NCBI GenBank assembly: GCA_043809585.1
Contig: JBDROZ010000109.1
Location: forward strand, 1-59,765
DNA: 59,765 nt
Reading direction: 5' to 3'
Source: Candidatus Eiseniibacteriota bacterium
Lineage (GTDB): Bacteria; Orphanbacterota; Orphanbacteria; Orphanbacterales; Orphanbacteraceae
Positions within the stretch are counted from its first letter, which is position 1. Each line of letters begins with the position of its first letter. The translations under genes were made by a program, and so were the position numbers. Below are positions 3,422 through 20,486 of the stretch, one piece after another. The notes under the pieces were generated by a model, which did not search any database, had not been told where the DNA came from, and saw nothing but the letters and a program-made list of their open reading frames with translations.

Positions 3422-6400
3422 ATGACTATCTCGAACCATTGTCCCCTGTGCATGGAAACCGGCGAGGAATGGCCGGTTCGGCGTGAGGACCGTTTCTGCG
3501 GAAATTGCGGCAACCCCCTCGTTTCTTTCGTGCCACCCCCCGAGTTCTTCCTCCTTCTCTTGACAGACGACGGAGACAGGACGAGTGCCTTCCTGACCCT
3601 CTCCAACACCTCGACGACCCGCTTCGGCCCGGTGAATCAGGTTAAAGTGAAGTTCGAATGGAAGCCCGACCTCGAGAATGAGGTGGGCATCGAGTTCGGC
3701 GAAGAGCTCCTCGAATCGGGGGCGGAGATCGTTGTCGAGCCGGAGCAAGTCGTCCAACTCACCCTCTCTCCGTTGATGGAGCCGGAAGACTTCGCGGGAG
3801 AACGCGTCCATCGGATCCAGATCAGCACCGACGATCCGAACCGCAAGAGCTTCCAGGTCGATATCCTCATCTCCAAGACACCGCCCGTGCCCGAGTGGCT
3901 GACCGAGGAAAACGCGCCCGTGAGCGCCGGCGAGGTGGTCAAGATCGAAGCAGAGGTTTCGAAGGTTCGCGCCGGAGTGGTGACGCCCGCGATTGGACGG
4001 GCCGTGCTCCGAAACGGAGGGGGCGGCGCCCTGCTCGTCAAGGAGATCGAGGTGCCGACCGACTACGGCGCGTGGTTCAATGTCTCCTTCAAGGAAGGGG
4101 AAGGGATCCGGTCGGGGGATTCGCGGATCATCGAGTTCCAGGTGTCTCCTGAGAAGATCCCGAGAGGTATCTTCGACGGGCACATTTCTCTCGTTTTGAA
4201 GGCGGAGGGCGTGGAGCCCCACCCGTTCCGGGTCCGGGTCGTGATTCACCAACCCCCGGTGCTCGAGGTCGTGCTCCCCGAGTTTCAATCGTGGGAGGGA
4301 GGGGTGTCGCGCCTCGTATGCGCCCCTTACGGCCGGCAGGACTTCGAGGTCCAACTCCTGAACCGGGGGACGAAGCCGCTGAACGTGACCGGCGTCATCT
4401 GCGACAGCCCGTTCCTGCGGCTCTATCTCGGAGGAAACCTGCGGGTGAAGGAGAGAACACTCTCCGAGCCGATTCCCGTCACGCCTGGAAAGACGGAGAG
4501 GGCCTTCAAGCTGAGCTGCAATCTCGAGAGCCTCGTCCACGACCGGGACTACCCGGCGGAGATCGTATTCCTTTCTGATGCGGTGAACGCCGAACACCGG
4601 GTGCGACTGCTCTTTCACGTGAAGAGGAAGACCCTTGACACGAAGTTCTACCACGACTCGTACATTGGCGTGGACTTCGGAACCTCCAACTCCTGCGTGG
4701 CGGTCCGGCATGCCCAGGACGTTCGGAAGGGGATGGAGGAGGCGTTTCGCGTTCTCACGCTCACACCGGAGAGCGAGCTCACGGGCCACGACCCCGATCC
4801 GACCACGCTCCCTTCCATGATCTTCTTCCGTGAAACCGACGACCCCCTGATCGGCGAGGCGGCCAAGGGCATCGGGCTCGGGAAGGAGGAACGGCTTTTT
4901 CGCTCGTTCAAGCGAACGATCGGCATGATGGTCGAGCAGCAGGTCGGGGGAACGGTTTTCACCTCCGAGGACCTTGCCGAGATCATCTTCGGGAGCTTGA
5001 TCGATGCGGCGCTCCGGGATCTCGATCACTTTCCTACGCGAGTCGTTGCCACCTGTCCGGCTAACTTCTACCACTATCAAAGAGCATCAGTCCTCCGCGC
5101 CTGCCGGCGGGCTCTCTGCCGGCGCGCTCTTCGCGCCCACGCCGACCAGATGCGCACGGACCTGAGAATACTCGATGAGAGCCCGGAGGTGGGACGGCCA
5201 TTCCGCGAGTTCTTGGAGGAGAAGGCCGACGCTCGCGGACTTCTGGAGGAAGTGAGGGAACGGTTCCTCGCGATTCATCCGGGCATCGACTGGGACCTCG
5301 AGAGCACCGCCGACTGCATGCTGCTTCTCCTCTATCTGAGCACCTCCCGCCGGGAGCTGATCGACTTCGGCGACAAGGGGGGGAACGGGTCGAAGAAGAT
5401 CGCCGCAGAGCGGATCACCCGGGATCTGATCCGCAGTTTCTTCGATGGCATCGGTGTACTGGGCGACCTCGTCGCTTTCGTCAACACTCCGCAGGCCTCG
5501 CTCGTTCGAGAGGCGAAGAGCCTCGAGTTGCTGAACATCTTCGAAGATTTTTGTTTCGACGTCCTGAGAAGCCTTCAAATCGCCGACGTTCTCATCCTCG
5601 ACGAGCCCTCCGCGGCGGCGTACGCCTACGTACTTCACGAGTTCGGACGGCTCGAAAAGAACCCCGAAGGTGAGAGGGAGTACATCGTAGTCTATGATTT
5701 CGGAGGAGGGACGTTCGACGTTTCAGTGATGTCAATCGAGACGCGGAACGAGATCCCCCAGGTCGAGGTGATTCACACGGACGGCATCAACGAGCTCGGC
5801 GGAGACGATATCGATCACGAAATGATCAACTGGGTTCTCGAGCGAATCGACGTGCCGAAGGTGAACCGGGAGTACGTGGAGACGAACATCTACCGGTTGG
5901 ACGCCTTGATCCGGATGAAGGCGGGATCGCAGCAGGAAATTCAGGACCTCCGGGTAAACGTACGCCGCGCGAAGAAGGTGTTGAAGGACTGGGCCGAGGG
6001 GGCAAAGATCAACTTCTCTACCCTCTCGGCGGAGACCCTTCCGGAGATCCCCGCGAGATTCACTCTGGACGGCCTCGGTGTCGAGAGTGTAGACCTTCTC
6101 TTTCAACGCGAGGACTTCCACGGGGCGATCACGGGCAGCATCGAGAAGACGATCGAAAAGACTAGGGACGTTCTCGAGAGGGCGGCCGAAAAGGAGGCGA
6201 GAAGCGGCCGTGAATTCCGGCTCGCCCGTTTCGTCCTGGCGGGGAAATCGTCCCGGATCCCGCTAATCCGGAGCATGATTCTCCGGGACGGGAGCATGGG
6301 GATCACGGACGACTTGTTCTTCGCCGGATTCGGAAAGATGGAGAAGGCGTGTGTCGCCCGGGGCGCGGCGTATTACGGGTTTCAGCAGGCGGGCGAGACC

Positions 6401-6826
6401 TCCGCAGGCTTTTCTGTCAGGACCGCGGCCCGTCCGTTGAGCCATACAGTGGGTTACCTGGAAAGGCGGGGACCGAGAGAGAAGTTTTACCCCGTGGGAG
6501 GCCTGGAGAAGGGGACGCCCGTAGACGGGGAGATGGCCCGAGGCCACTTGATCCGAGACTTTACGCCGATCACCATTCTCCAGGTCGCTCAGAACGGGGG
6601 GAATGACAATCGCGTTGAGGGCAACCGGGACATCATCCGCGTCGGGACGCTGGGCTGGAGGAAGCTCGTTCCCAATCTGAGAAAGGGCGAGAAGGCGGAG
6701 GTCGTCTTCCTCGTCGACCGGAACGGGATTGTGCGGGTCGAGGCCGCGTTCCGGGGAGAGAAGATCGGTGAGTTCCGGGCGACGCCGATCGGGCTGCGCG
6801 ATCTCGAGCCGTTCCTTTGGATCTGA
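3422..6826 (+). CDS. Hsp70-family ATPase with N-terminal Zn ribbon, several Ig-like domains and a helical insertion
   Basis: CPLC..CGNC; YIGVDFGTSNS, TLPSMIFF, ATCPANF, DEPSAAAYAY, VYDFGGGTFDVS, LGGDDID, LAGKSSRIP, VARGAAY. Confidence 0.9.
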   Translation: MTISNHCPLCMETGEEWPVRREDRFCGNCGNPLVSFVPPPEFFLLLLTDDGDRTSAFLTLSNTSTTRFGPVNQVKVKFEWKPDLENEVGIEFGEELLESGAEIVVEPEQVVQLTLSPLMEPEDFAGERVHRIQISTDDPNRKSFQVDILISKTPPVPEWLTEENAPVSAGEVVKIEAEVSKVRAGVVTPAIGRAVLRNGGGGALLVKEIEVPTDYGAWFNVSFKEGEGIRSGDSRIIEFQVSPEKIPRGIFDGHISLVLKAEGVEPHPFRVRVVIHQPPVLEVVLPEFQSWEGGVSRLVCAPYGRQDFEVQLLNRGTKPLNVTGVICDSPFLRLYLGGNLRVKERTLSEPIPVTPGKTERAFKLSCNLESLVHDRDYPAEIVFLSDAVNAEHRVRLLFHVKRKTLDTKFYHDSYIGVDFGTSNSCVAVRHAQDVRKGMEEAFRVLTLTPESELTGHDPDPTTLPSMIFFRETDDPLIGEAAKGIGLGKEERLFRSFKRTIGMMVEQQVGGTVFTSEDLAEIIFGSLIDAALRDLDHFPTRVVATCPANFYHYQRASVLRACRRALCRRALRAHADQMRTDLRILDESPEVGRPFREFLEEKADARGLLEEVRERFLAIHPGIDWDLESTADCMLLLLYLSTSRRELIDFGDKGGNGSKKIAAERITRDLIRSFFDGIGVLGDLVAFVNTPQASLVREAKSLELLNIFEDFCFDVLRSLQIADVLILDEPSAAAYAYVLHEFGRLEKNPEGEREYIVVYDFGGGTFDVSVMSIETRNEIPQVEVIHTDGINELGGDDIDHEMINWVLERIDVPKVNREYVETNIYRLDALIRMKAGSQQEIQDLRVNVRRAKKVLKDWAEGAKINFSTLSAETLPEIPARFTLDGLGVESVDLLFQREDFHGAITGSIEKTIEKTRDVLERAAEKEARSGREFRLARFVLAGKSSRIPLIRSMILRDGSMGITDDLFFAGFGKMEKACVARGAAYYGFQQAGETSAGFSVRTAARPLSHTVGYLERRGPREKFYPVGGLEKGTPVDGEMARGHLIRDFTPITILQVAQNGGNDNRVEGNRDIIRVGTLGWRKLVPNLRKGEKAEVVFLVDRNGIVRVEAAFRGEKIGEFRATPIGLRDLEPFLWI

Positions 6827-6859
6827 GGACGTGTGGGGACCGGCAAGGAGAAGCCACCC

Positions 6860-8281
6860 ATGATTCTCGGCGCTGACTGGGGGTATCGGAGGGTCGCCTT
6901 CTCGGCGCTCTCTCGGGTGCTCGGGGCGAGGCCCGGCCACGTGACGGGCTACAACTCGAGCGAGTGGGCCGAGCCTTCCTGGTTCTCCTTCCATTCCGAT
7001 GCGACCCTCGGTTCGGCGGGGACGACCCCGGACATAGCGTTCGGCGCCGCCGCGCGCGCCGCCCTGGATGATCGAGATTTCCCGGCGAGGGCGGAAGCCG
7101 GGAAGTCGGGCCTCTGGCCGAGAGTGCTCCGCCACTTGGCGGGTAACGAGGAAAGGGCGCGACTCGCCTGCATGTATCTAATCGCGGAGGCATTCCGCCC
7201 GGCAATGGCGACGGTGAGGGCCGAGGTGCCCCTCCGCATCGCTGTGGGAGACGAGAGGCTTCCCGATGTCGGGGAGGCGCTCACCACGCTCTCGGCAGAG
7301 ATGAGCTGCGACGCCGTCGTGCTCCCCTCCTCCGTGGCCCATCTGGGCAACTTGGAGCTCCCGGACTCTCTCATGCGTTGCGCGGTGATCGACTGGGGAG
7401 GGGGTGCGCTCCGGATGGCGGGTCTCGAGACGGAACTTCCGGCGCCGGACATCAGGACGGTCCGGATCGTGGCCCGGGAGTCGTATCCAGGCCACTCCGT
7501 CGGCGAACTCGAATCCTCTCTCATGGCCTCGATCTGCCGAAAAGGGAGCGGACGGTGGGAGCCTTGGAAGTTTGCGGACACCCTGGACCATCTGTGGGGG
7601 GGGGCGGGGGCGTCCCGGCACGAGGGGGCGGACGCCACGGCGGCACGCGAGAAGATCGACCGGTTCTACTCGAAGTCGGCCTCCGTGTTCGAGAAGTTCG
7701 GACGTCGGCTTGGCCGGCGGTGGGACCGCGTCGACATCCTCGTCCTGACGGGAGGGGGCGCCCCGCTTCTCGAGAGGGGAGGGTGGCACGTCGGCTGGCC
7801 AGATCGGGACGAAACCGTGAGGCTGGAAGCGAGTCACGGCGCGGCCCGGGGCGCCGCGCTGCTCGGAACCGGACGACGGACGCAGTTGCAGATCGTGGAG
7901 GAGGGGGCTCTCTCGGTGATCGCGGATGGGTGTGAAGCCGTCCCCCTCTGGGGCGGGCGCGAAATCAACGGCCTCTCCTCTTCGGGGGAGGGACGATCCG
8001 CCTATTTGCCGCTCGGCGCGCTGGACCACACACCGGAGTACGTCGCCCTCCAATGGGGTTTGGGGAGGGAGAGTGGAGAGGGGCGAATCGTCGCCACCGT
8101 CCCCATCGATCGGATCGGAGGAGGCCGCCGTTCCGTTTGGGCGGGGGCCGACGCGAAATGTTTAGGTTCATCCTTGACCGGGCTATTCTGGATCCGGGAT
8201 CCCGAGAGCGGGCGGGAAAGTTCGTCCGGCTGGGAGATCGATCTCGGTCTCCGGGGATCCTCGATCCTGACACTTTCCTGA
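6860..8281 (+). CDS. Degenerate Hsp70/actin-like ATPase-fold protein
   Basis: ILGADWG, AVIDWGGG, LVLTGGGA and AARGAAL occur in Hsp70 order; AAGGAG RBS. Confidence 0.7.
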   Translation: MILGADWGYRRVAFSALSRVLGARPGHVTGYNSSEWAEPSWFSFHSDATLGSAGTTPDIAFGAAARAALDDRDFPARAEAGKSGLWPRVLRHLAGNEERARLACMYLIAEAFRPAMATVRAEVPLRIAVGDERLPDVGEALTTLSAEMSCDAVVLPSSVAHLGNLELPDSLMRCAVIDWGGGALRMAGLETELPAPDIRTVRIVARESYPGHSVGELESSLMASICRKGSGRWEPWKFADTLDHLWGGAGASRHEGADATAAREKIDRFYSKSASVFEKFGRRLGRRWDRVDILVLTGGGAPLLERGGWHVGWPDRDETVRLEASHGAARGAALLGTGRRTQLQIVEEGALSVIADGCEAVPLWGGREINGLSSSGEGRSAYLPLGALDHTPEYVALQWGLGRESGEGRIVATVPIDRIGGGRRSVWAGADAKCLGSSLTGLFWIRDPESGRESSSGWEIDLGLRGSSILTLS

Positions 8282-8307
8282 GCGGAACGAGGAGGCGGAA
8301 AGGGACC

Positions 8308-10269
8308 ATGGAATCGTTGATGCCTGCAAAGAGGGTTGCTCCGCCGAGCGCGCTCTGGAGATGCCTCGTCCTGGCGGTTTTCTTGGGTGTTCTGCCGGGG
8401 CTAGGGACGGCGCAAGACGAGGGCGGGGGCAACGCCTCGGCGGGGGTTGGCCAGGGGAAGGCGGCCCCGCCATGGTACGAACTGAAGGATTTCACTGCGG
8501 AAACTCAAGGGAACAAGATCGTAGTTGCGTGGACGAATCCCGTGAGTGAGCTGTTCAGTGAATCAAGGGCGTACATTTCCCAAGACTCGGAGGATCCCGA
8601 GAGCGGTGAGGTGCTCATCGGTGAGAAGGAATTGGAGGGAAATCCCGGCGCCCCCGGGGAGAAGATCCGCTTCGAGCACGAGATCGATCCTTCCAAGACC
8701 GTTTACTACTGGATTCAAGTCTACGATAACGACAATAGACCCTGGATAAGCAAGCGCGGCTCGAAACCGGCGAAATCGGGCACCGAACCGCACGAGGTGG
8801 GGGGTGCCCGGCCCACCCCCCCGCATGACGGGGGGTTCGTCCAAAAACCCCGGTCAAGACTTCAGAAGATCCTAACGTCCTTCACGGATCTTGTTGATTC
8901 CGTTCTGGCAGGGTGGAAAACGATCCTCGTGTTTCTCCTAGGGTCTTACTCCCTTCTCGCGACATATCCACTCGTCAGGGCTTACTTGGACGATGAGGAA
9001 AAGCTCACGTGGAATCGATTCGGCGATGACGGTAGGGGCAGGAAGAAGAACGCGTTTCCCCCATTTTGGACCTCCTCGGAGGTCTTGGCATACACGAAGG
9101 ACCTGGGCGGGGATCAAACCGAGATGAAGCGTCTCAAGCGCCGCCTGGCGGAGGCGGAGGAGAACAGTGCCCGAACCTTGGAAAGAAGGCTCGAAGAGGC
9201 GAGGGAGATGCACGCGGAGGAACTCGGCCGAGTCAATCGAGACTATGCCGCCGCCTCCGACCGACTGAACGGGACGATCGGTACACTCGAATCGGAGCTT
9301 GAGCGCGTCCGGGTGGAACTCGTCGCCAAGGAGGAGGCCCTTGCCGAGGTGGAAGGGAAGCTCTCCGAGACGTTGAAAGAGCTCCGACGGTCGCAGAAGG
9401 ATCGGGCGGGGCTGGCGGAGGAGAAGAGCCGGCTGGAGTCGAAGCTTCAAGCCATGGTCGCCGGCTTCTCGAAGGCACTCGGGCCTGAACTCTCGTCATC
9501 CCTCGACCGACTCCAGCTGCAGATTGTTCCCTTGGTCGTGGGCGATCCGGAGGGCGGAAGAGACGGAGGGGAGCGGTTGGAGAAGCTGACCGTCGTCGTG
9601 GGCAGTGTCCGGAACCTCGGCGCCTCCGTCGACCGGAGGGAGTGGACCGAGCTGATCGGAAAGGAAGGGGCGGGTCTGAAGCACCTGCCGGGCGCGATCC
9701 GGGAGCTGAGCGAGATCGCGGTGCAGACGGACAACAAGTCGGGAAATCTGTTCGGGTCAGGTACGAGGGGAAGCACCTTCGATTTCCCCGACCCGAGCGA
9801 CCCAGAGTTCGCGAAGAAGGTCGAGGCCTCCCGTTTCCAATCGCTCACCGCAGCGATCGTCGACAGTCTCGGCCGGGCGAAACGGATCGCGGAGGCGGGC
9901 GTCGACATCTCGGTCCTGGAGCAGCAGCTCCGCAAGTACATCCTGGACGAGGCGGCGTCTAAGTTCTTCGTCGCCGAGGCGGAAGCCCGCATGCAGGCGG
10001 CCGATCTCGGCCCGAGGCTGACCGAGAAGATCGGCGAACTCAAGGCCCAGCTCGTGAACTTGCTCAGGAAGGAGTACTCCCTCGATCCCCAAGAGATCAC
10101 GCCGGGCCAGCTCTTCAACGACAAGGAATTCCGCATCGCCGGATCGTCTGGGATCGAGCAGTACCCCACGGTGCGGCAGAACGGCATTGCCGAAGTCGTG
10201 ACGTGGGGCTACCGGCAGGCTGGATCCGACAAGGTCGTTCAAAAGGCGGAGGTCATCGTTCGGTCGTAA
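8308..10269 (+). CDS. Single-pass membrane protein: signal peptide, FN3-like domain, TM, coiled coil, C-terminal GrpE-like domain
   Basis: Signal LVLAVFLGVLPGLGTA; FTAE..IVVAWTNP..VYYWIQVYD; TM TILVFLLGSYSLLATYPLV; C-terminus PGQLFND..IAEVVTWGY..VVQKAEVIV. Confidence 0.75.
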   Translation: MESLMPAKRVAPPSALWRCLVLAVFLGVLPGLGTAQDEGGGNASAGVGQGKAAPPWYELKDFTAETQGNKIVVAWTNPVSELFSESRAYISQDSEDPESGEVLIGEKELEGNPGAPGEKIRFEHEIDPSKTVYYWIQVYDNDNRPWISKRGSKPAKSGTEPHEVGGARPTPPHDGGFVQKPRSRLQKILTSFTDLVDSVLAGWKTILVFLLGSYSLLATYPLVRAYLDDEEKLTWNRFGDDGRGRKKNAFPPFWTSSEVLAYTKDLGGDQTEMKRLKRRLAEAEENSARTLERRLEEAREMHAEELGRVNRDYAAASDRLNGTIGTLESELERVRVELVAKEEALAEVEGKLSETLKELRRSQKDRAGLAEEKSRLESKLQAMVAGFSKALGPELSSSLDRLQLQIVPLVVGDPEGGRDGGERLEKLTVVVGSVRNLGASVDRREWTELIGKEGAGLKHLPGAIRELSEIAVQTDNKSGNLFGSGTRGSTFDFPDPSDPEFAKKVEASRFQSLTAAIVDSLGRAKRIAEAGVDISVLEQQLRKYILDEAASKFFVAEAEARMQAADLGPRLTEKIGELKAQLVNLLRKEYSLDPQEITPGQLFNDKEFRIAGSSGIEQYPTVRQNGIAEVVTWGYRQAGSDKVVQKAEVIVRS

Positions 10270-10298: not shown

Positions 10299-11723
10299 TT
10301 GGCGCTTAATCTCGCGTTTCTGGACAGCATGACCGACTACTTCGGCGCCGCCGACCATGCCCTCGAGGGTCTCGGTGGTATTCCGTCATTGCCCGTGCTC
10401 TCCGTGGAAGAAGGAGATCTTGAGAGGGAGAAAGACGGCGTCTCGAGAATGCTCCTTCCCGAAGTTCCGGGGCTGGACGAAGTGGTTCGCCTGAGACCGG
10501 TCGGTTGCGCCCCTCCCGGCCTCGAAATGGTGAATGGTGAGGCTGGCAAGTGGATCGCATCGGACCTCTCCGCCGGTGAGGGCGGCGGGGGTCCTCATTA
10601 CTATCAAGCGAACCGTGCGGACGGTTCTGCTGTTCTGCTCCTACGCTTCTCGCCCTCCGAGAATGGCGGCGGACGCCTGCGATTCGCGGACGGTACCAGG
10701 AGGAGCCCGATCGGCCCGGCCCTCGTCACCCTTTCAGGCCGGCTCGAACGAGAGGGGGGCCAACCGGAAGGCAGGGGATGGCGATTCTCGGAAGACAGAC
10801 GCTCGGTAGTAGGCGATATCACCGTGACACCAACCACAACGGAGGGGAGGTCCCTCTGGCTCGAAACCGATGACCCATGGCTTCAGGTGGCGGTGGGTAG
10901 CGACGACCGCCCTCTCTGGTCGAGCCGAGCGACCGTGTCCGCGGACTCGGGAGACACAGCGCTCTTTCGTGTCTTCCTCCCTGAGTTCCAGGTTGGATCC
11001 CTCCGCTCATCGATACGGCTCTGCGCCCGGGACGAAGGAAAGAATATCTCTATTCTCGACGAGCTCTGCCTCACCTTCGTTCACCACTCCATTCCGTCCT
11101 TGGATGAGGCCGCCAACCGCATCCGGAACCAAATCGCACCCGTCCACCTTCCTCGTGGGCGAGGCAGGCTCTGGGTCGCGGATATGGACAACCGGCGGAC
11201 AAAGGCGATCATTCTCACCCTCGGGAGAGGGCCTCTCCGGTTCTCCGACGCGCTCGGAACGGAGGGCCCGATGCGGACCAACCTTCCTGGTCTCTCGAGG
11301 AAACTCGTCTACTTCCTCGGGCTCGATCGGGAGCGGGGTGCCCGCCAGGGAACCCAGTCGCTCAAGCTCTCGAGCGGGAATGAGGAGGCCTTGGTTGAAA
11401 TCCCGATTGCTCGGATCGGAGAAGGCTTTCGGGGCCGGTGGGCCCCGTTGGTGGGAGACAGGGCGGAGCTCCGGATCAAGCCTCTTCTCGGCGTGTTCCT
11501 CAGATACGAGGTAATTGTGGAGGGGGTCGAGTGCCCGGTGGAGAAGGACGAGACGGACCGTATCGTGTTTTCATCCGAGGGTGCGGAAGCTCTCCGGGCG
11601 GGGAAGGAAGCCATCGTCATCGAACGGGGTTCGGGCACCGTCCATCGGTTCGACTTGACAGGCGGCGTCCCTTCCGAGAAGAAGAGAGGATCGAAGAAGA
11701 AAGCGAAGAAGGGGGGAGACTGA
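10299..11723 (+). CDS. Hypothetical beta-rich protein (possible BACON/Ig-like domains)
   Basis: 474-aa ORF filling the operon gap; LWLETDDPWLQV resembles BACON-type motifs. Start uncertain (TTG 10299 or ATG 10329). Confidence 0.65.
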   Translation: MALNLAFLDSMTDYFGAADHALEGLGGIPSLPVLSVEEGDLEREKDGVSRMLLPEVPGLDEVVRLRPVGCAPPGLEMVNGEAGKWIASDLSAGEGGGGPHYYQANRADGSAVLLLRFSPSENGGGRLRFADGTRRSPIGPALVTLSGRLEREGGQPEGRGWRFSEDRRSVVGDITVTPTTTEGRSLWLETDDPWLQVAVGSDDRPLWSSRATVSADSGDTALFRVFLPEFQVGSLRSSIRLCARDEGKNISILDELCLTFVHHSIPSLDEAANRIRNQIAPVHLPRGRGRLWVADMDNRRTKAIILTLGRGPLRFSDALGTEGPMRTNLPGLSRKLVYFLGLDRERGARQGTQSLKLSSGNEEALVEIPIARIGEGFRGRWAPLVGDRAELRIKPLLGVFLRYEVIVEGVECPVEKDETDRIVFSSEGAEALRAGKEAIVIERGSGTVHRFDLTGGVPSEKKRGSKKKAKKGGD

Positions 11724-11726
11724 GTT

Positions 11727-13061
11727 TTGGAGGTTGGCTGCCCCTACGTGGAATGCACGACCGACACCCTTGAGAAGGATGTCGGTGCCTGCCCGTCGTG
11801 CGGTCATCGTGTGCGCCGCTGTGCGGAGTGCGGATCGACGAACAGGTTGTTCGCCACGTTTTGCCGCATTTGCGGCGAAACCTTCCGACGGGATCATACG
11901 AAGTGGACCCAGAGGATGGGTGGGCCCTTGCGAACGGGGTCCGTCGATCTGTGGAAGGGCCTGGAGCCTGCTGCGAAACCGAAAATCACCTGCGGCCTCA
12001 CCGGAGAGACATCCCCGATCCTAGGCGGCATGGTGAGCGGGTTCGGGATGCTCTACGGCAGAACTCGGGACGGCTCGGTAGTCGAACTTTCCCAAGACGA
12101 CTTGAAATGTCATCGCACCTGGGTATTCCATGGGATGGGGGAGGAGGAGAAGCGATACAGTACGCCGATTCTTTCCGGGACGGACCTCTTCGTATTCGGA
12201 AGCCGTTCGGTGTGCAAATGCCGGCTCATTCGCGAGAAGGGAAGCGAAACCACAGTGGAGATCCCCGAGTCGCTCGTGATTCTCCCGAACCGCGTCGCCG
12301 TATCGAACGATCACGTCTTCCTCGTCGTCTACGACAACGAGGTGCGGGGACAGAAACTGATCTGCCTCTCGAGGAACGTGGATCCGAAGGAAGGCATTCT
12401 CTGGGAGGCCGAGCCGTTTCCGGACGGGGCGACGATCAGCGCCCCGCTCGTCATCCGGGAGCGGTGCGTCTTGGGCGACTCGGGGGGAAGGGTCTACCTG
12501 TTCCAGGGAAAGGGAGGTCCCTTCCCCACAGGGAAGACCTCGGAGGGACGGGAGGCTGGGCTCGGCTACAACGTGAGGGTCGATCCGATCGGTATCGACA
12601 CCAAGGCCTACTTCCTCTCGGAGGACCTGGACGGGGGACGGGATCGGATCATCTATAAGGTGAATGTCGCCGACTCCATGTTCCCAATTCCGTTCGCACG
12701 GCTCGGTGGCTGCTCACCCGTCGCCGTGTGTTACGCAAAACGGTTTTGGTTCGTGCAGCTCTCGGACGGCTACTGCCACCTCGACCCGGGGGGCGGGTTG
12801 ATCGGCCGGACCTCCGGAGGCGCCATGGTGGGGGTCCGGGACGACGTTCCGCCCACGATCATCGGTCCCTACATATTCACGATGACCTCTTCCGGCCGGG
12901 TCCATACCACGGTTTATACCGGCGGCAAGTGTTTTACACGTCCTTATTTTCCAGAGGGCCTTCAGCATGGTGGCGCGTTCACCAGTCTCGTGCCGGGCGA
13001 CGGCGCTCTCTTCGGGGCGCGGGAGGACGGACTTATCTGCAAAATCGTGATCGACGGCTGA
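11727..13061 (+). CDS. Double zinc ribbon plus PQQ-like beta-propeller protein
   Basis: CPYVEC..CPSC..CAEC..CRIC; WTQRMGGPLRTG; repeated STPIL/SAPLV/GDSGGRVYLF blades. Confidence 0.8.
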   Translation: MEVGCPYVECTTDTLEKDVGACPSCGHRVRRCAECGSTNRLFATFCRICGETFRRDHTKWTQRMGGPLRTGSVDLWKGLEPAAKPKITCGLTGETSPILGGMVSGFGMLYGRTRDGSVVELSQDDLKCHRTWVFHGMGEEEKRYSTPILSGTDLFVFGSRSVCKCRLIREKGSETTVEIPESLVILPNRVAVSNDHVFLVVYDNEVRGQKLICLSRNVDPKEGILWEAEPFPDGATISAPLVIRERCVLGDSGGRVYLFQGKGGPFPTGKTSEGREAGLGYNVRVDPIGIDTKAYFLSEDLDGGRDRIIYKVNVADSMFPIPFARLGGCSPVAVCYAKRFWFVQLSDGYCHLDPGGGLIGRTSGGAMVGVRDDVPPTIIGPYIFTMTSSGRVHTTVYTGGKCFTRPYFPEGLQHGGAFTSLVPGDGALFGAREDGLICKIVIDG

Positions 13062-13131: not shown

Positions 13132-14877
13132 ATGAAGGGAAGAAATCGAGGCCTGGTCTTGTGTCTGGGGGGAATGGTCCTGCTACTTCCCCTTGCCTCA
13201 ACGTTCGCGCAGCAGGAGACGGCGCCGGGTCAGTCGATGGGTCATGTGGTCCTTTTCGACGTGTCGGGAAGCATGAGGCTCGAGTGGCAGACAGAGGCGA
13301 ACCGACGGATGATGGAGCGGTGCCTTCTCGCGAACGGCGATGTGATCCGGGACGAGGAGGGTGTCGTCGCCCGGGCGATCACGGCGCACAACGTCGTCGG
13401 TGGCCCGGACGATCCGAGCCGCTACTGGCCGCAACAGGGCGAACAGGCCCGGGTCGCGGTGGGAAGCCGGGAGGGGGTGGCGCGCGAAATCACGAATCGG
13501 ATCGAACCGACCAATGAGAACACCGATCTCCATTCCGCATGGAACGCGGGACGGACGGAGGCCGGGCGATACCTAGGTGCCACGCCTTCCATCGTATGGA
13601 TGATCACCGATAACTGGCAGGACACGGGGGGAGATGGGCAGGAGGAGATGGACGCGTTTTACGCGTCTCTCCAGGCGGACTCGGTGGTTGCGGCGGTGTA
13701 CCTTGTCCCCCTCATCCGAAACCCGGACGGGGAGAACGAGAATCTCGTGCTCTACGCGATTCTCGTCACCTCCCGAAACACCAGGGAGTGGGCCTCTCAT
13801 AGTCTAAAGATGAGACTGGATAAGATGCTGGAAGCGTTCCGGAAGGAGGAAGGCCTAGTCGACTACGCTCTTCGGAGGATCCCTTGCAAGTTCACGATCG
13901 ACGATTCTCCGAAGATCGAAAAAGGATCAATGGGTTTCGAGAATACCTCCAATATGCCAATCGAGTTCGAGGTGGACGGAAAGACTCTCGTTTTCGAGAA
14001 CCTGAGGGTCGGGATGCCCGTCGAGGGAAAGCTCAGCTTCAAGATGCGCTCCTATCTCGAGGAGTGGAGCCTTCAGGGGGCGCCACTGAAGCCCGCGTTG
14101 TTCCGCTTCTCCCCGCCCCGGCACGGCGTCCTGAAGAAGCCACCGGGTTGCGAGAAGCAAATCACGCCTCCGGTGATCGACTCGAAGCCGGGGGAGGTGA
14201 CCGAGTCGACCTACGAGATCCGCTTCTTCGGCAGCGACGCCCTTTTCACGCCGGCCATGGGCCGAAGGCCTCTCCGTGTCTTCTTCCCAGGTGCGGAGGA
14301 CGTGGTCGAGGGGAAGATGTCCCTCGTCATCTCCGTCGATGTGAGCCGGAACATCCGAATCGACGACACCGCTCTCGAAGTGCTAGACGGCAAGATCCAT
14401 CTCATAGGGGGGATCAAGCGTTTCATTCGGGGGGGCGGGGACTCGACGGACGTTAAGCGAATCGTCGACCTCCCGCCCGCGGCGTACGATCTTGAATTCC
14501 ACGTACCGACAACCGTCAAGGTCCTCGGAATTCCGGCCGGACTGCTTGTTCTCCTTCTCATCGGCCTTGGTGCCGGCGCAGTTCTCGCCTTTGGTCTCCT
14601 GCCAAAGAAAGCGAACATTTCGGTCGACGAGGAGCCGCACGAGGAGGTCGCTGTCCGGGCCTTCGGAGGCATGCACAGGATCAAACGGGACGGCGCGACC
14701 CTCGGGGCGCTCTCGGCGCGGTTCTTCGGAGGAACGGCCTTCAAGATTCCGGCAGGAGCCCGGTTCGACGAGGGGGCCGGAAGAACGCGTCTCATCGGCC
14801 GGGAGCCGGCGGCGTTCACCATTCTCGTGAAGAATATGGAGTACGAAATCAGAATCACGCCCATCGTGAGGGGGTAG
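13132..14877 (+). CDS. Exported vWA-domain protein with C-terminal TM and cytoplasmic tail
   Basis: Signal peptide; MIDAS VVLFDVSGSM, NTDLHSA, WMITD; TM GIPAGLLVLLLIGLGAGAVLAFGLL. Confidence 0.85.
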   Translation: MKGRNRGLVLCLGGMVLLLPLASTFAQQETAPGQSMGHVVLFDVSGSMRLEWQTEANRRMMERCLLANGDVIRDEEGVVARAITAHNVVGGPDDPSRYWPQQGEQARVAVGSREGVAREITNRIEPTNENTDLHSAWNAGRTEAGRYLGATPSIVWMITDNWQDTGGDGQEEMDAFYASLQADSVVAAVYLVPLIRNPDGENENLVLYAILVTSRNTREWASHSLKMRLDKMLEAFRKEEGLVDYALRRIPCKFTIDDSPKIEKGSMGFENTSNMPIEFEVDGKTLVFENLRVGMPVEGKLSFKMRSYLEEWSLQGAPLKPALFRFSPPRHGVLKKPPGCEKQITPPVIDSKPGEVTESTYEIRFFGSDALFTPAMGRRPLRVFFPGAEDVVEGKMSLVISVDVSRNIRIDDTALEVLDGKIHLIGGIKRFIRGGGDSTDVKRIVDLPPAAYDLEFHVPTTVKVLGIPAGLLVLLLIGLGAGAVLAFGLLPKKANISVDEEPHEEVAVRAFGGMHRIKRDGATLGALSARFFGGTAFKIPAGARFDEGAGRTRLIGREPAAFTILVKNMEYEIRITPIVRG

Positions 14878-14880
14878 CCG

Positions 14881-15708
14881 ATGATTGGTGTCACTTCATG
14901 CCGGGTCTCGCGTGTCCAGTTCACGGGTCTCCTGATCCTCTTCTTGGCAACGGCCCTGTCGCCCCCGCGGGCCCACGGTCAGCAGAATGCCTGGGGGGGG
15001 GGTGATGTATTCGTCACGGATGTGATCGGCGTCGAGGTGCGTGATCTGGACCAACGCCTGATCAGGAATTGGGAACGGCTTCTCTGTGTGCGGCTGGACG
15101 AAACGTGGCTTCAGCAGATGAATGAACAGGGCATCTTCGTCCCCGATCCCCTCGTCGGCGAAAAGGACGCGGTCCAATACGTGTACGCCGACGAAGAGTA
15201 CGAGCACCGGTTCGACACGAACGAGAACGGCCGGGTGCGCATACCGGTCGCCAAACCGGGCCAGGACGGCCCAGGGAATGTGGGATACCAGTACGTCTTC
15301 CGCGACTGGAAGGGACGCCTCCGCCATGAAGACGTGGATAGGTTCTTCATGCAGCGGGATGCGGAACCCACCCTACCCGGCACGATTTTCGCACCATGGC
15401 ACACCTACCGGTCGCCGAGAGAGTGGTTGGCCGTAATCGGGCTCTACCTGCTGGCCATGCTGTTCGTCACGTTCGGCCTCTATCGACCCTTCTACGTTTG
15501 GAGGCTGCACCGGAGCGACGCCGCCCTCAAGTCCCGTGATTGGGCGGTCTCTCTCTGGCTCTTTTTCGCCTTCGCCCTCTGGGGCGTGATCGTGTGGATG
15601 TGGGCGCCAAGGCCCTATTACATTTGGACCACCCTCGGCGTCCTCGGTTTGGTCTGGCTGCTCTATCTCCTGATCAACGCGGCGCGCCCGCGGGAAGAAG
15701 GAATCTAA
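14881..15708 (+). CDS. Membrane protein (signal peptide, extracytoplasmic domain, three C-terminal TMs)
   Basis: N-terminal hydrophobic signal ending AHG and three hydrophobic stretches near the C-terminus. Confidence 0.75.
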   Translation: MIGVTSCRVSRVQFTGLLILFLATALSPPRAHGQQNAWGGGDVFVTDVIGVEVRDLDQRLIRNWERLLCVRLDETWLQQMNEQGIFVPDPLVGEKDAVQYVYADEEYEHRFDTNENGRVRIPVAKPGQDGPGNVGYQYVFRDWKGRLRHEDVDRFFMQRDAEPTLPGTIFAPWHTYRSPREWLAVIGLYLLAMLFVTFGLYRPFYVWRLHRSDAALKSRDWAVSLWLFFAFALWGVIVWMWAPRPYYIWTTLGVLGLVWLLYLLINAARPREEGI

Positions 15709-15769: not shown

Positions 15770-18700
15770 ATGAACGAAACAGGCACCACAAAGGATAAGA
15801 CAAGGAAGGCACCGGCGGTCATTATCGGCCTCGGGGGAACGGGGGCGGAAGTCCTTCTTCGTGTGCGCAGGAAGTTCTTTGAAGCTTCAGCGACATTGTC
15901 ATTGGAAGAGTTCCCTATCGTCCGCTACCTCTACCTGGATACGGACGAGGCGGACAAGCAGATCGCCCGCTACAACCAGCACCTCTTTAATTTCAAGCAG
16001 AGCGAACAGTTCATGACCACCATCGACCACTGGGCGAGCTTTACCCACCAATTGCAGGATTTTTCAACGCTCAGGAAGTGGTGGTACGAAGACCAGGTCG
16101 ATCTTCTGCAACCAGCTCTTAATGCTGGTGCCGGACAGATGCGAGCCTACGGGAGACTCGCCTTTTGGCACCACGCAGCGGCAATCAGAAACGCGGTTGG
16201 TTCGGCGATTGATTCGGCGAAGAGCCCGGCCAGTCGAAAGAAGATGACTGATCAGGGATTTACAGTCACATCGGAAAGGACTGAGATCTACCTGGTTTGC
16301 TCCGTTGCCGGCGGCACGGGGGGCGGGATGCTATTCGACATGGGCTATCTTCTCAGGGACATATCGAAGGGCAAACTCTCGATCAACGCCTTCATCGTTC
16401 TTCCTTCGTCCTTTCTCGGCATCCCCGAGGTGAAAGAAGAAAAGGTGAAGGCGAACGGGTACGCGGCGCTAAAGGAACTCGAGTACTACTGCAGCCGGGG
16501 CCTCCGAAAGTCGGTGTTCGACGACAAGTGGCAGGACAACCGGCCCACGTCTCCCATCTTCCAGACTTCCCCGTTCGATCGAATCTTTCTCTTCGACGCC
16601 AACAACGAGGGGAATCAGTCGCTCGCCGAGCACGTGGCCCGGGGCGGCCTGACCGACATGATCGCCGATAATATCTACCTCGACTACGGCCTCTCCAAGT
16701 TCGCCGAAGAGAAGCGATCAGTCTACGTAAACCATGATCAGTTTCTTCAGGGAGAGTACCCGTGGATCCACCACGATCCGGTTTCGGGAAAGGACGTCCT
16801 GACCGAGGTATGGATCAAAGCGTTTCAGTCCCTCGGCATCGCGAAGATCTACGTTCCGATCCACCGGATCAAGAAGGCGTGCGCCTGCCGCCTCTGGTCG
16901 AAGGTGTTCAATCTTCTCGGTGCCGGCGAATTCGAGGGGGACGTGGCCAAGATCCGCGACGGGCTGCTCGCGAAAGGTGATGTGCCCGCCCACGTGGGGC
17001 GGAGGAGGATCGACGAGCGGGAGCGGAAGGTGGACGACTTCCGGGCCCACCTGGAGAAGAGTACCTCGGAAGGGAAATCTCTGGAGAGGGTGATCAGCGA
17101 GAGGGTTCTCGAAATTCAGATGTCGATCCAGCGTGGCGACGCGGAGAAAGAGAGCGAGGAGAGGCACGAGTTCCTGGAGAGGAAGATCAAAGGCCTGTAC
17201 GACCGGCTGTTTGTGGAGCCGAGCAAGAGCAAGAAGGACTATCAGGAGTGGGGCGAGGTGTTCCGTCAGATCGAGCTGAATCGGCGCAACTACGAGAAGG
17301 AACTCGAGAAGTCGCTCCGGAAGCTGACGGATAATCTGATGTCCGACGCTGAGAAGGGCATAGGTTACGCTTCAGAAGTCCTCCGGTCGTTCCATTCCTA
17401 CTTCACCCACGAGACGCACGGTTACTGTCACGTCTTCGAGGACAGGATCAAGTCCGCGGAGAAGTTCGTGGAGGCAGCGAGCCGTGAGTACCAGGCGCGC
17501 GTTCTCGCCTTGCAGCAGCACGAGGCGTGGGGCGTCATGGACGGTCCATTCTTGAAGGGGTCTACGATTCGCTATGACATCAAGATGGCCGGGAAGGCAG
17601 CGAACGACTACTTCCAGGCGATCTTCGACCGGCGGATTCTCGAGGCGAGCAAAGAGATTTGCGAAGCCATGGTCGAGGTGATCGGAGAGAGCGACAAGGC
17701 GGAGTGGACCGGTCTTCTCGGGAATCTCCAGAAGCTCAAGATGAACCTCGACGCTCTCGCCGACGGCATGGCGATCCGGGAGAGGCAATTCAGCGAGAAG
17801 GAGCACGACCCGGTCAACAGGTGCATCTACGAAGAGGAACAGCTCCGGGACCGCTACTTCCCGATGGCCCTCGGGCTGAAGAAGGAGGACTGGAAAAACA
17901 AAAAGGTGATCGAGGGGGCATGCCGGGACATGGCACCCCGCCTTCTCATGGATCTGGAGGTGACGATCGACGAGGTTGTGCGGCACGGCATCAAGGTGAA
18001 GGAGATCCCGGAGGTGGCGGACGCCCTCGGACTTGACGATTTCCAGATCGCCCTGATCTCCCAGTCTCTCAGGCACTTCTCAAAGCTCGACGAAGTAAAT
18101 GTCATCGACGTCTTCCTGGAAGACGTCCCCGCCGCAGACCAGGGGGGGATGATCGAGGAGCTGCTCGACCTCGCCCTTCCTTGGTTTCAGAAAGACGCGC
18201 AGCATGTTGGTTCCCCCGAAATCACTTCAACAGTCGTTGGCTGCCACCGGGAAAACAAACCGAGTCACCAGGCTTGGTGGGCCCAGACCAGCCAGAGTGT
18301 CAAGGCGAAGTTTCCAAAGCTCACCGAAAGGGAAATGGCGGAGAAGGACACCATCATCTTCTTCTCCCAGATGACCGGTTTCCCACTCTGCTACGGAAGC
18401 AGTGTCCGGGATCTCCGAACTCACTACGAGGAGCTCGTACGGGGGGACCACGACCGGCTTCATATTTCGAAAGACGAGATCAAGTACCCCGATCTCGTCA
18501 AGCTGGACGAGCAGGCGTGGATGAAACTCCGGCGGGCGAAGGAGTTGTTCATTCTCGGTATCGCTACGGGTGTTATCCGCGAGCGAAAGGAACCCGTTGC
18601 CGGCACGGAGTCGCAGCGGACCATGTACTTCTATGAGTACATGGAATTCGGTGAGAAATTCCAGAAGGACATCGGGACCGTGAACACGGTTATCCGCCAA

Positions 18701-19036
18701 CTGATCGCGGACATGAACCTCGCCGAGGCCGTGCAAACAAATCTGGAGGAGAGACTGTCTATTCTGAATGCGAATCCGAAGGCCAAGGCCGAACTGGGAA
18801 TCGTGATTCGTGGCTACATCGTCCCTGGAGGTGTTTTCGCCGAAAGAACCTCGACCGACGGAAGCGAAAAGCCCCGGACCGTGCAACCCATGGAATACCT
18901 TATCGTCCGTGAGTTGATCAATCGCTACTGGAAGGGTGTTGATTGGGACTCGATAGAGTATGAGGAAGCCGAGAAGAGCATTGCAGAGCGTACCGAACTC
19001 CGCGAGGGAGGATTGAGGGCGTTGAAAAGTGCTTGA
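15770..19036 (+). CDS. Tubulin/FtsZ-like GTPase (Tubulin_2 type) with long helical C-terminal region
   Basis: IIGLGGTG, LYLDTD, GAGQMRAYGRLAF and signature SVAGGTGGG; GGAGG RBS. Confidence 0.92.
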   Translation: MNETGTTKDKTRKAPAVIIGLGGTGAEVLLRVRRKFFEASATLSLEEFPIVRYLYLDTDEADKQIARYNQHLFNFKQSEQFMTTIDHWASFTHQLQDFSTLRKWWYEDQVDLLQPALNAGAGQMRAYGRLAFWHHAAAIRNAVGSAIDSAKSPASRKKMTDQGFTVTSERTEIYLVCSVAGGTGGGMLFDMGYLLRDISKGKLSINAFIVLPSSFLGIPEVKEEKVKANGYAALKELEYYCSRGLRKSVFDDKWQDNRPTSPIFQTSPFDRIFLFDANNEGNQSLAEHVARGGLTDMIADNIYLDYGLSKFAEEKRSVYVNHDQFLQGEYPWIHHDPVSGKDVLTEVWIKAFQSLGIAKIYVPIHRIKKACACRLWSKVFNLLGAGEFEGDVAKIRDGLLAKGDVPAHVGRRRIDERERKVDDFRAHLEKSTSEGKSLERVISERVLEIQMSIQRGDAEKESEERHEFLERKIKGLYDRLFVEPSKSKKDYQEWGEVFRQIELNRRNYEKELEKSLRKLTDNLMSDAEKGIGYASEVLRSFHSYFTHETHGYCHVFEDRIKSAEKFVEAASREYQARVLALQQHEAWGVMDGPFLKGSTIRYDIKMAGKAANDYFQAIFDRRILEASKEICEAMVEVIGESDKAEWTGLLGNLQKLKMNLDALADGMAIRERQFSEKEHDPVNRCIYEEEQLRDRYFPMALGLKKEDWKNKKVIEGACRDMAPRLLMDLEVTIDEVVRHGIKVKEIPEVADALGLDDFQIALISQSLRHFSKLDEVNVIDVFLEDVPAADQGGMIEELLDLALPWFQKDAQHVGSPEITSTVVGCHRENKPSHQAWWAQTSQSVKAKFPKLTEREMAEKDTIIFFSQMTGFPLCYGSSVRDLRTHYEELVRGDHDRLHISKDEIKYPDLVKLDEQAWMKLRRAKELFILGIATGVIRERKEPVAGTESQRTMYFYEYMEFGEKFQKDIGTVNTVIRQLIADMNLAEAVQTNLEERLSILNANPKAKAELGIVIRGYIVPGGVFAERTSTDGSEKPRTVQPMEYLIVRELINRYWKGVDWDSIEYEEAEKSIAERTELREGGLRALKSA

Positions 19037-20486
19037 TCGTAGGATCAGGAGCGTCGTAATCGGAGCGCTGGCGTGGAGCGCTCTGTGCTCTGCGCTCCCC
19101 GGACCGGCGTTCGGGGGCTCCCTATCCAGTCCGGTGGTTGTCCGGCTGAATCAGTTCGACGTCGTAAATCCCACCGAGGGCTTGGATCTCACGGAAGAAG
19201 AGATCACAGAGTTCTTGTGCGAAAAGCTGCGAAACCGGAGCGACTTCGAGCTTGTAATAGAGGCCCCTGAGTCTCTTTCCCTGATCGACTACGACCTACT
19301 GGTCACCGTTGAATGGCGGGAGCCCGGTCCGGAAGGCCATCACCTGGACCTCGATATGGACCTTCGGAATTCCCGCAAGGGCGAATCCGTGAAAAGCGAT
19401 CGGAAGGTCGACTTGTCTCTCACCGAAGGGCAGGAGGCGCTGGACCGTTTCGTGCGAGAATTGCGGGGCAGCCTGAGGATTCTATGCACGAACTATGAGA
19501 ACGCACGCGTGAGTTTCGATCGCCAGGTCGGGGTCGCGCCCTTCGACAGCGTGGGCATTCTCCTTGGCACGTATAACGTCAGCGTCTCCCATCCTCCAGA
19601 GGCGATCAAGGAGTCGCGTTTGGTTACGATAAGCAACGGATCCCGGATGACCGAGAGTTTTTCTCTGGAGGAGAGACCGACCCTCCTGCGGATTCGGACG
19701 ACGAACGGGGAAGGCACGGTCTACCTCAACGGGAGGTCGGTCTTCGACACATACAAGACGTACAAGAAGCAGGTGGTCGAGCTGAAAGCACGGCCCCGCG
19801 GGAAGGGAGCGACCCTCCGGAAGCGTTTGGTTCTGGAGAAGCATGAGGACTACGACATCGTCGTCGATCTCCGGCGCCGCACCGTAACGGGGAAGCATCC
19901 TCCAAAGGTGATCGGACCCCGGCGGCCCTTCCTTCACACGAGCGCCTACCTGGGAATCGGGTATTCCGTGGCGATCCCCGAGGACCCCGGGCTGGAGGAG
20001 AACTTCAAGGTTTTCCACAACCTATCCGTCGACGTGGGCGGGTGTCTCGGTCTCTTCGCCGGGCAGACCACGTTCTTCATCGGAATCCCCCAGAAGAACT
20101 TCAGCGGTCTGACGTTTTCGGACGGGGCGCAGGAGGAACAGGAGATCAAGTCTCTCTATAGGGACGGGATCAGCGTGGAAGGGCGGTTCATTCTGCCGCT
20201 CGGGCGAGTGGGGGACAACGCGGTGTATCCCTTCGGGGGAATCGGCTACATGTGGGCGTGGTTCATCGCCTCCGCGGACGAGTGGAGAGGAGTGGACGGG
20301 GAGTACCACGGGGCAGGCGACCCCGGGATCAAGGTCGAGTCGTTCTATCCGTTTTGGACGGCCGGATTGAACTTGGGCAGGTTCGCGGTTGCCGGCAGGG
20401 TCTCCATCCTGGACCCGGGCGAATACGAGTCCAATTGGCTCGAGTTCGGCCTCACGTGGAATCCCGTAGAGGAGATACGAGATTGA
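19029..20486 (+). CDS. Exported PEGA-domain protein with probable C-terminal outer-membrane beta-barrel
   Basis: Signal peptide; GSLRILCTN..LGTYNVSVS and TLLRIRT..GTVYLNG; C-terminal alternating strands YPFGGIGY..LEFGLTWN. Overlaps the tubulin stop codon. Confidence 0.7.
   Translation: MLDRRIRSVVIGALAWSALCSALPGPAFGGSLSSPVVVRLNQFDVVNPTEGLDLTEEEITEFLCEKLRNRSDFELVIEAPESLSLIDYDLLVTVEWREPGPEGHHLDLDMDLRNSRKGESVKSDRKVDLSLTEGQEALDRFVRELRGSLRILCTNYENARVSFDRQVGVAPFDSVGILLGTYNVSVSHPPEAIKESRLVTISNGSRMTESFSLEERPTLLRIRTTNGEGTVYLNGRSVFDTYKTYKKQVVELKARPRGKGATLRKRLVLEKHEDYDIVVDLRRRTVTGKHPPKVIGPRRPFLHTSAYLGIGYSVAIPEDPGLEENFKVFHNLSVDVGGCLGLFAGQTTFFIGIPQKNFSGLTFSDGAQEEQEIKSLYRDGISVEGRFILPLGRVGDNAVYPFGGIGYMWAWFIASADEWRGVDGEYHGAGDPGIKVESFYPFWTAGLNLGRFAVAGRVSILDPGEYESNWLEFGLTWNPVEEIRD

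Follow-up and report, generated by a model that had tools for sequence, protein, structure and literature searches.

A gene in a stretch of 59,765 nucleotides (nt) of contig JBDROZ010000109.1 (positions 1–59,765) of Candidatus Eiseniibacteriota (GCA_043809585.1) was found to encode what is very probably a GrpE-derived, membrane-anchored protein. This whole stretch is referred to as the window; coordinates are window positions, and all genes and features described in it lie on the forward strand. The gene extends, stop codon included, from 8308 to 10269 (open frame 8308–10266, stop 10267–10269), and its product, P0001, comprises 653 amino acids (aa). From its sequence and from structural models P0001 is best explained as an inner-membrane protein that is composed, from the N- to the C-terminus, of a signal peptide or signal anchor, an FN3-like domain, a transmembrane helix, a coiled coil, a helical region and a GrpE-derived module. 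The original prediction for this gene, which was made from the sequence alone, had proposed a membrane-anchored GrpE acting as a receptor-like exchange factor for adjacent Hsp70 proteins.

Relationship of the C-terminal module to GrpE

The GrpE-like module comprises aa 499–653 (9802–10266) and consists of three long helices followed by a beta-wing, which according to the structural model and the profile alignment occupies aa about 592–652 (10081–10263). Two of the helices, from aa about 548 onwards, align to GrpE. An exhaustive HMMER search of 1.84 billion representative sequences with aa 385–653 retrieved ten proteins at an expectation value (E) of 1e-3 or better, namely P0001 itself, P0003 with 62% identity and eight proteins with 25–33% identity. 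A word-indexed homologue search with full-length P0001 was saturated by coiled-coil candidates and retrieved nothing but P0001. The conserved region of this family is formed by the C-terminal ~270 aa, in which L, P, I, W, G, V and V are invariant.

In the full 653-aa protein no Pfam or NCBIfam family was found at E ≤ 0.01. When the last 169–269 aa were scanned against Pfam, a single family was matched, GrpE (PF01025), at E 0.018–0.069. The alignment was in register, with profile positions 89–163 of 165 lying on the very end of the protein. Ten family members were also scanned singly; two of them matched PF01025 at E ≤ 1 (best value 1.3e-4), and no other family was matched by more than two of the ten or at a value better than 0.023.

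For a comparison of profiles, a GrpE reference profile was used that consisted of 30 canonical GrpE domains taken from other genomes. The family C-terminus was aligned to this profile by hhalign with a probability of 94.6–95.1% and P values of 3e-8 to 7e-8, and after addition of two orthologues the rerun gave 94.7%, P 5.6e-8 and a score of 51.5. The alignment spans the GrpE columns 67–162 or 86–162 of 163, reaches the last column of both profiles and shows an identity to GrpE of ~13% in the aligned part. As controls, reversed profiles yielded P values of 0.16 and 0.18, and the best of 20 column shuffles reached P 0.029 and a score of 18.4.

The AlphaFold 2 (AF2) model of aa 385–653 has a predicted local distance difference test score (pLDDT) of 82.6 and a predicted template modelling score of 0.77, and displays three long helices followed by six short strands. 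In a Foldseek search of the PDB with this model the ranks 1–10 were all taken by GrpE or GrpEL1 chains (E 4.5e-4 to 1.7e-2, probability 0.97–1.00), and the first match after these ten chains had an E value of 0.15. The GrpE-like C-terminus of the original prediction was therefore upheld both by the profile alignment, far above its shuffled controls, and by the structure search. In the monomer model the helices of the GrpE-like region bundle among themselves, and this self-packed helical bundle may replace the dimer bundle of GrpE.

Several results weigh against the assignment to GrpE. The search with the GrpE model that had been suggested for the C-terminus returned GrpE as the sole Pfam family and in register, but with a score of 13.3–15.2 bits, below the cut-off of 25.8 bits, and the NCBIfam scan of P0001 gave no match to a GrpE model. 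Sequence searches of the PDB with family profiles found no GrpE at E ≤ 10; with the protein and with two family alignments only coiled-coil or designed-bundle matches were obtained. The hidden Markov model (HMM) of the family missed the canonical GrpE genes in the 401 genomes searched, although such genes were found in 39 of the 41 nearest of them. Moreover, the arginine of the GrpE consensus LRPA, which is important for DnaK binding, is missing from the aligned consensus of the family. On the side of structure, the Foldseek TM-scores of the GrpE chains are low (0.23–0.44). The GrpE matches of VIA-align (Z 9.3, 9.0 and 8.6) tie with unrelated helical bundles, and the same tie with bundles on the helical part was seen in a wide search (GrpE Z 9.0, 8.5 and 7.5). 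An Atlas search with the GrpE-like module listed unnamed clusters first; GrpE was the sole named family, at rank 28 with a score of 0.85, and we regard this as a weak lead.

In the accessible text of PMC12625404 the ‘GrpE-like domain’ of phage tail fibres denotes a coiled coil. This caution does not apply here, because the match of P0001 is to the beta-wing end and not to the coiled coil. Judged by the profile comparisons and by the predicted fold, the C-terminal module is a very divergent homologue of the bundle helices and the beta-wing of GrpE, which by score lies outside the curated family.

Domain organisation, membrane topology and family

A Shine-Dalgarno-like sequence, AGGAGG, is read at 8290–8295 upstream of the ATG at 8308. 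The start of P0001 aligns with the start of its closest homologue P0003, with M1, S3 and M5 invariant. For these two reasons ATG 8308 was taken as the start codon; the database gene call for the same locus (P0002) has 710 aa and starts further upstream.

The hydropathy scan of P0001 revealed two hydrophobic segments, at aa about 10–35 and 199–224, with ~160 aa between them. The first (8347–8412, aa about 14–35) is preceded by K8 and R9 and contains R18. A hydrophobic segment is thus present where a signal peptide had been proposed, but it could also be a signal anchor. The second segment (about 8902–8979) agrees with the transmembrane helix that had been placed at about 8915–8985, and an equivalent second segment is present in eight of 12 family members. 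Lysine and arginine residues stand before the first segment; after the second segment they are more numerous than before it in six of the eight anchored family members and equally numerous in the other two. Since there are two membrane-spanning segments, the N- and the C-terminus should be on the same side, and together with the distribution of the basic residues this leads to a predicted N-in/C-in topology with a cytoplasmic GrpE-like end. This is the orientation on which the original prediction depended. The presumed partner, an Hsp70 of 1134 aa, carries no signal peptide. As a separate observation, the GrpE-like orthologues of the genomes G401 and G402 have lipoprotein-like starts (...CCGWGC and ...CCGMGC; contig L041 4897–4970 and contig L044 near 19590), as opposed to the plain signal peptide of the window protein.

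Between the two segments lies a predicted extracytoplasmic beta-sandwich at aa about 56–146 (8473–8745). The AF2 model of aa 37–201 has a mean pLDDT of 63.4, with values of 75–86 per 10-residue block in the core (model residues 21–110), and this core is made up of five long strands and one short strand. In a Foldseek search it matched, at E 4e-4 to 6e-3, both FN3 domains (PTP-delta, neogenin, DCC, Ihog) and sandwiches of other Ig-like types. Furthermore, aa 44–138 match one FN3-type repeat of a secreted protein from a genome of the same family (G008) at E 8.6e-4; this secreted protein matches Pfam fn3 at 8.7e-8, and the alignment of the repeats has invariant W, P, G, G, H and Y residues. The Pfam scan of the P0001 ectodomain itself yielded no match and no ligand-binding family. 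With moderate confidence, resting on the model and on the repeat match, we consider the term FN3-like to be fair, in line with the domain proposed originally. The secreted protein (G008, contig L002, 808–2769, reverse strand) is also 653 aa long, contains five FN3-type repeats and a FlgD_ig/Por_Secre_tail-like C-terminus, and is the sole sequence relative of the P0001 ectodomain within the phylum.

The cytoplasmic stalk is assigned to aa about 265–390 (9100–9477), where windows rich in E, K, R, L, A and Q are found. Here NCBIfam and PDB searches matched SMC-type or other coiled-coil proteins only, in agreement with the long coiled coil described before. We infer that P0001 dimerises through this ~125-aa coiled coil. 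The only PADLOC result, LmuB at 6e-4, was dismissed as coiled-coil noise. The stalk is followed by a helical region at aa about 391–498 (9478–9801) that, according to the family alignment, is specific to the family and without counterpart in GrpE; in the model it comprises the helices H2-27, H34-55, H59-69 and H76-93.

The architecture was compared in 12 family members, the ten representatives and the orthologues on the contigs L041 and L044. The membrane anchor was not seen in P0004, P0007, P0008 and P0009; P0007, at least, appears to be a piece of a P0010-type protein. The outside part of the eight anchored members differs widely. It is FN3-like in two of them (P0001 and P0003), consists of three CarboxypepD_reg domains in P0011 (8.8e-21), is a low-complexity stretch of about 70–105 aa in four (P0005, P0006 and the L041 and L044 orthologues) and is reduced to a loop of 14 residues in P0010. 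Consequently, the constant features of the family are the anchor, the coiled-coil stalk, the helical region and the GrpE-like end, and not a sensor domain.

The family is very rare, and the source genome has one gene of it. The GrpE-like family was not found in the nine other genomes of the phylum, and the family HMM detected no member in 400 other sampled genomes except for a weak match in G377 (E 5.5e-4). This match, in an unrelated complete genome (L038; C1:1390783–1391052), covers the profile positions 13–102 and thus the helical part only. Locus searches of genome and metagenome contigs with P0003, with the alignment of P0001 and P0003 and with P0017 did not retrieve a relative.

The operon and the conservation of its gene order

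The gene of P0001 occupies the third place in a series of at least nine genes of the same direction, which are separated by 6, 26, 29, 3, 70, 3, 61 and −8 nt (starts of the neighbours as in a mechanical list of open reading frames (ORFs)). The first gene (3422–6826) encodes the presumed partner, the 1134-aa Hsp70 (Pfam HSP70 1.4e-29). This protein contains a Zn-ribbon, detected below threshold, a beta-rich region of ~370 aa, the Hsp70 nucleotide-binding domain and a short C-terminal beta region, and we read it from its sequence as an Hsp70 without the helical lid. The phosphate-1, phosphate-2, connect and adenosine motifs are kept in six of six orthologues, with DFGTSNS, DEPSAAA, DFGGGTFD and LAGKSSRIP as the conserved sequences. 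An insertion of ~150 aa lies between the PANF...QR strand and DEPSAAA; this insertion and the beta-rich front end are kept in five orthologues.

The second gene (6833–8281) encodes a protein of 482 aa without an assigned family, whose position is kept in the contigs L040 and L041. It displays motifs that recall Hsp70 (DWGYRRV, DWGGGALR and LVLTGGGAP), and a language-model lead of the Atlas search pointed to Hsp70 clusters (0.93, few shared features). As a second Hsp70, however, the protein was rejected, since hhalign gave probabilities of 1.3% with its sequence alone and 2.8% with three orthologues. Because the resemblance is at the level of motifs and of the language-model lead only, we do not call it an Hsp70; possibly it is a degenerate protein of the actin/Hsp70 fold. 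Consequently, of the adjacent Hsp70s that had been postulated, the 1134-aa protein was confirmed and the 482-aa protein was not.

Downstream of the GrpE-like gene follow a 474-aa protein of unknown function (10299–11723), which has no BLAST match in L044 or L041 and at whose position a 427-aa ORF is found, and a Zn-ribbon and beta-rich protein of 444 aa (11727–13061, Pfam scan) with an orthologue in the same order in L044 and L041. The next gene (13132–14877) encodes an exported or membrane protein of 581 aa with a signal peptide-like start and a DVSGS motif at aa 43–47 that resembles a metal ion-dependent adhesion site. No vWA match was found in Pfam even at E ≤ 10; on the basis of the motif and of the published FtsZl1-vWA precedent we consider it to be probably a divergent vWA protein. 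A transmembrane helix near aa 470–495 and a cytoplasmic tail of about 85 aa were also noted in this protein. A 275-aa membrane protein (14881–15708), with an orthologue in the same order in the related operon, precedes a tubulin-like protein of the FtsZl1 type with 1088 aa (15770–19036; Pfam Tubulin_2 3.6e-61; 35% identical orthologue in L044). The 485-aa protein encoded at 19029–20486 (BLAST 3.4e-24 to L044 7356–9323; PEGA below threshold) is the last one for which the related operon has an orthologue. Proteins of the PEGA-like, P-domain and TPR types are encoded further downstream. At the end of the gene run (23929–26382) a protein of 817 aa has a sub-threshold match to TPR-S (PF20308, E 7e-4), a family that was reportedly defined from the conflict systems of Kaur and colleagues (2020).

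A canonical hrcA-grpE-dnaK-dnaJ locus, whose GrpE has 193 aa, is situated on another contig of the genome. The GrpE-like copy of the operon is therefore regarded as an extra, specialised one. The G+C content of the gene run 3422–26382 is 0.58–0.66, compared with 0.68–0.72 for most of the window beyond 26 kb. This lower content, together with the finding that the GrpE-like and Hsp70 genes were not found in the nine other genomes of the phylum, suggests that the gene run is a horizontally acquired island.

The atypical Hsp70 has five full-length orthologues with 30–67% identity, and the next matches are ordinary DnaK-like proteins with at most 66 bits. In 400 other sampled genomes no orthologue was detected at E ≤ 1e-30. 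One orthologue, P0016, was located on two contigs of metagenome-assembled genomes, L040 and L041. In both other genomes with an orthologue of the Hsp70 the family HMM detected a single GrpE-like gene (at E 6.9e-29 and 2.3e-23). The genes of L041 encode, in this order, the Hsp70, a protein of 450 aa, the GrpE-like protein, a protein of 427 aa and the Zn-ribbon protein. In G401 the contig with the Hsp70 gene stops after the second gene and another contig starts inside the GrpE-like gene, continuing with the orthologues of the Zn-ribbon, the vWA-like, the membrane, the FtsZl1 and the 485-aa protein in the order of the window. In the window and in L041 one gene thus separates the GrpE-like gene from the Hsp70 gene, and in G401 these two are situated at facing contig ends. 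The arrangement is common to three of three accessible genomes; these represent about two independent lineages, since G401 and G402 are related to each other.

Proposed function and comparison with known systems

By analogy with GrpE we consider it rather likely that P0001 is tethered to the membrane as an exchange or docking factor dedicated to the Hsp70 of its own operon. The GrpE-like end would bind the nucleotide-binding domain of this Hsp70 as GrpE binds DnaK, and the beta-wing and the adjacent helices would open that domain, by homology with GrpE as described in the accessible part of a review (PMC12987570). The likely client would be the catalytically intact Hsp70, whose gene lies two positions upstream in all accessible operons of this type. 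The anchor and the long stalk would keep the exchange activity at the inner membrane face, beside the membrane proteins and the tubulin-like protein of the operon, and P0001 would hold and cycle the Hsp70 ATPase at the membrane face of an envelope-spanning complex. We infer Hsp70 binding, nucleotide-exchange activity and the role of the whole machine, and the mechanism as exchange or docking factor appears plausible. Two findings speak against it: the window encodes no J-domain protein, the two J-domain genes of the genome being situated elsewhere, and the HPD tripeptide is absent from all operon proteins. For this reason the operon by itself does not reveal a complete Hsp70 cycle.

We considered three alternatives. 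First, P0001 could be a GrpE-derived scaffold without exchange activity, a structural tether of the Hsp70-like ATPase, of the tubulin-like filament or of another operon protein to the membrane. We hold this to be unlikely. The extreme divergence from GrpE, with 13% identity and scores under the curated thresholds, would fit such a role, as would the extra helical region ahead of the GrpE-like module, the helices that bundle alone in the monomer model and may replace the GrpE dimer bundle, and the insertion of roughly 150 aa in the ATPase domain of the atypical Hsp70. The best-conserved part of the family, however, is the beta-wing with the preceding helix (invariant P, I, W, G, V and V), and these are the elements with which GrpE opens the nucleotide cleft of Hsp70, as stated in the accessible part of the same review (PMC12987570). 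Furthermore, the Hsp70 keeps its catalytic motifs and should therefore need nucleotide turnover, which counts against a scaffold.

Second, and in our view quite unlikely, P0001 could be a receptor-like exchange factor as put forward in the original prediction. The outside domain would sense a ligand or the state of the envelope, and the signal would pass through the transmembrane helix and the coiled coil, switch the GrpE-like end and thus the cycling of Hsp70. Signal-transmitting proteins are usually built with a long coiled coil between the membrane and an effector end, which counts for this proposal, as do the folded FN3-like domain outside in P0001 and P0003, the three CarboxypepD_reg domains of P0011 and the further operon proteins with outside domains. 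Kaur et al. (2020, PMC7159879) propose, in the text available, that in related NTPase systems variable FNIII modules act as sensors. On the other hand, the outside part is not conserved, four of the eight anchored members having low-complexity sequence only and one the 14-residue loop, and in the P0001 ectodomain no ligand-binding family was detected in Pfam. Consequently, the anchored GrpE-like end, the outside domain and the Hsp70 neighbour of the original prediction stand, but the variation of the sensor domain across the family weakens the idea that ADP release is controlled from outside. The receptor-type reading could overlap with that of an exchange or docking factor. Extended in this direction, and with little probability, the operon would encode an envelope-spanning machine whose outside domains, FN3-like and vWA-like ones among them, report surface attack or damage through the GrpE-like protein; this protein would in turn switch a private Hsp70 by which the tubulin-like FtsZl1 filaments are assembled or dismantled. 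If true, this would be transmembrane signalling by chaperone nucleotide exchange in place of phosphorylation.

Third, it is very improbable that there is no real relation to GrpE and that the helices and the small beta domain are alike by chance or convergence: the missed curated thresholds, the empty PDB hmmsearch for GrpE, the VIA-align ties with unrelated bundles and the low rank of GrpE in the Atlas search would agree with this, but hhalign with its controls, the ten best Foldseek matches and the sub-threshold Pfam matches of two members concur on the family and on the C-terminal region, and the gene is near an Hsp70 gene in two of three genomes, with compatible contig ends in the third.

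GrpE-type exchange factors are described as soluble proteins. With GrpE and GrpEL1 (PF01025; 1DKG, 4ANI, 3A6M and 9BLS) P0001 shares the C-terminal bundle helices and the beta-wing, a preceding helical stalk and the placement of the gene beside an Hsp70 gene, in the present case with one gene between. It differs from GrpE in its length (653 aa compared with 193 aa for the GrpE of the same genome), its membrane anchor and its outside domain, in the additional ~125-aa coiled coil and extra helical region, and in an identity of ~13% that goes along with a score under the Pfam cut-off. In the accessible text of the 2025 review of GrpE-like factors (PMC12987570) the word ‘transmembrane’ occurs 0 times. 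A phrase search of the literature, which covered neither the supplements of Makarova and Koonin (2010) nor those of Kaur et al. (2020), did not find a membrane-anchored GrpE.

As far as the main part of their article shows, Kaur, Burroughs, Iyer and Aravind (2020, eLife, PMC7159879) described HSP70 together with GrpE, sometimes with a second HSP70-only gene, in GAP1-N2 DO-GTPase systems. There the tubulin theme and the HSP70-GrpE theme are non-overlapping and found mostly in actinobacteria and firmicutes. The operon described here resembles these systems in that a larger NTPase operon includes a dedicated Hsp70 and a GrpE that goes with it. Components of the tubulin, vWA, FNIII and TPR classes are found in that class of systems, in which many parts are membrane-associated. 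In contrast to them, tubulin and Hsp70-GrpE occur together in one operon here, and in the article text, its figures and source data aside, a membrane-anchored GrpE is not mentioned. Searches with PF19975, PF19993 and PF20013 (DO-GTPase1, DO-GTPase2 and GAP1-N2), the only models of this group that were used, gave nothing over the cut-off in the genome and nothing inside 3422–26382, and Pfam scans of the operon proteins found no GTPase family. A DO-GTPase/GAP1 system as the frame for the operon was therefore rejected. Since those genes were not found, the operon is not a member of the GAP1-N2 DO-GTPase system, although it draws on the same parts list.

The FtsZl1 family (Tubulin_2, PF13809) and its vWA operons were defined by Makarova and Koonin (2010, Biol Direct 5:33, PMC2875224), who in the main text predicted a membrane-associated complex. 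Common to those operons, as presented there, and to the one described here are an FtsZl1 protein (of 1088 aa in the window) that carries a long extension at its C-terminus, a membrane protein that is vWA-like, in the window only putatively so, and an abundance of lineage-specific membrane proteins. The words ‘Hsp70’, ‘DnaK’ and ‘GrpE’ occur 0 times in the main text of that article (PMC2875224), its additional files aside. The Hsp70 and the GrpE-like genes are additions in this type of FtsZl1 operon. They would provide a biochemical handle on FtsZl1 operons, namely two predicted binding partners that are amenable to expression and assay. If the proposed function is true, the Hsp70/GrpE pair would here have been put to use as a local motor or switch within a membrane complex, unlike its role in general protein folding. 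Compared with the known exchange factors, P0001 is a GrpE-type factor in a new form, in which a GrpE-derived module is joined to a membrane anchor and a coiled-coil stalk in a rare operon.

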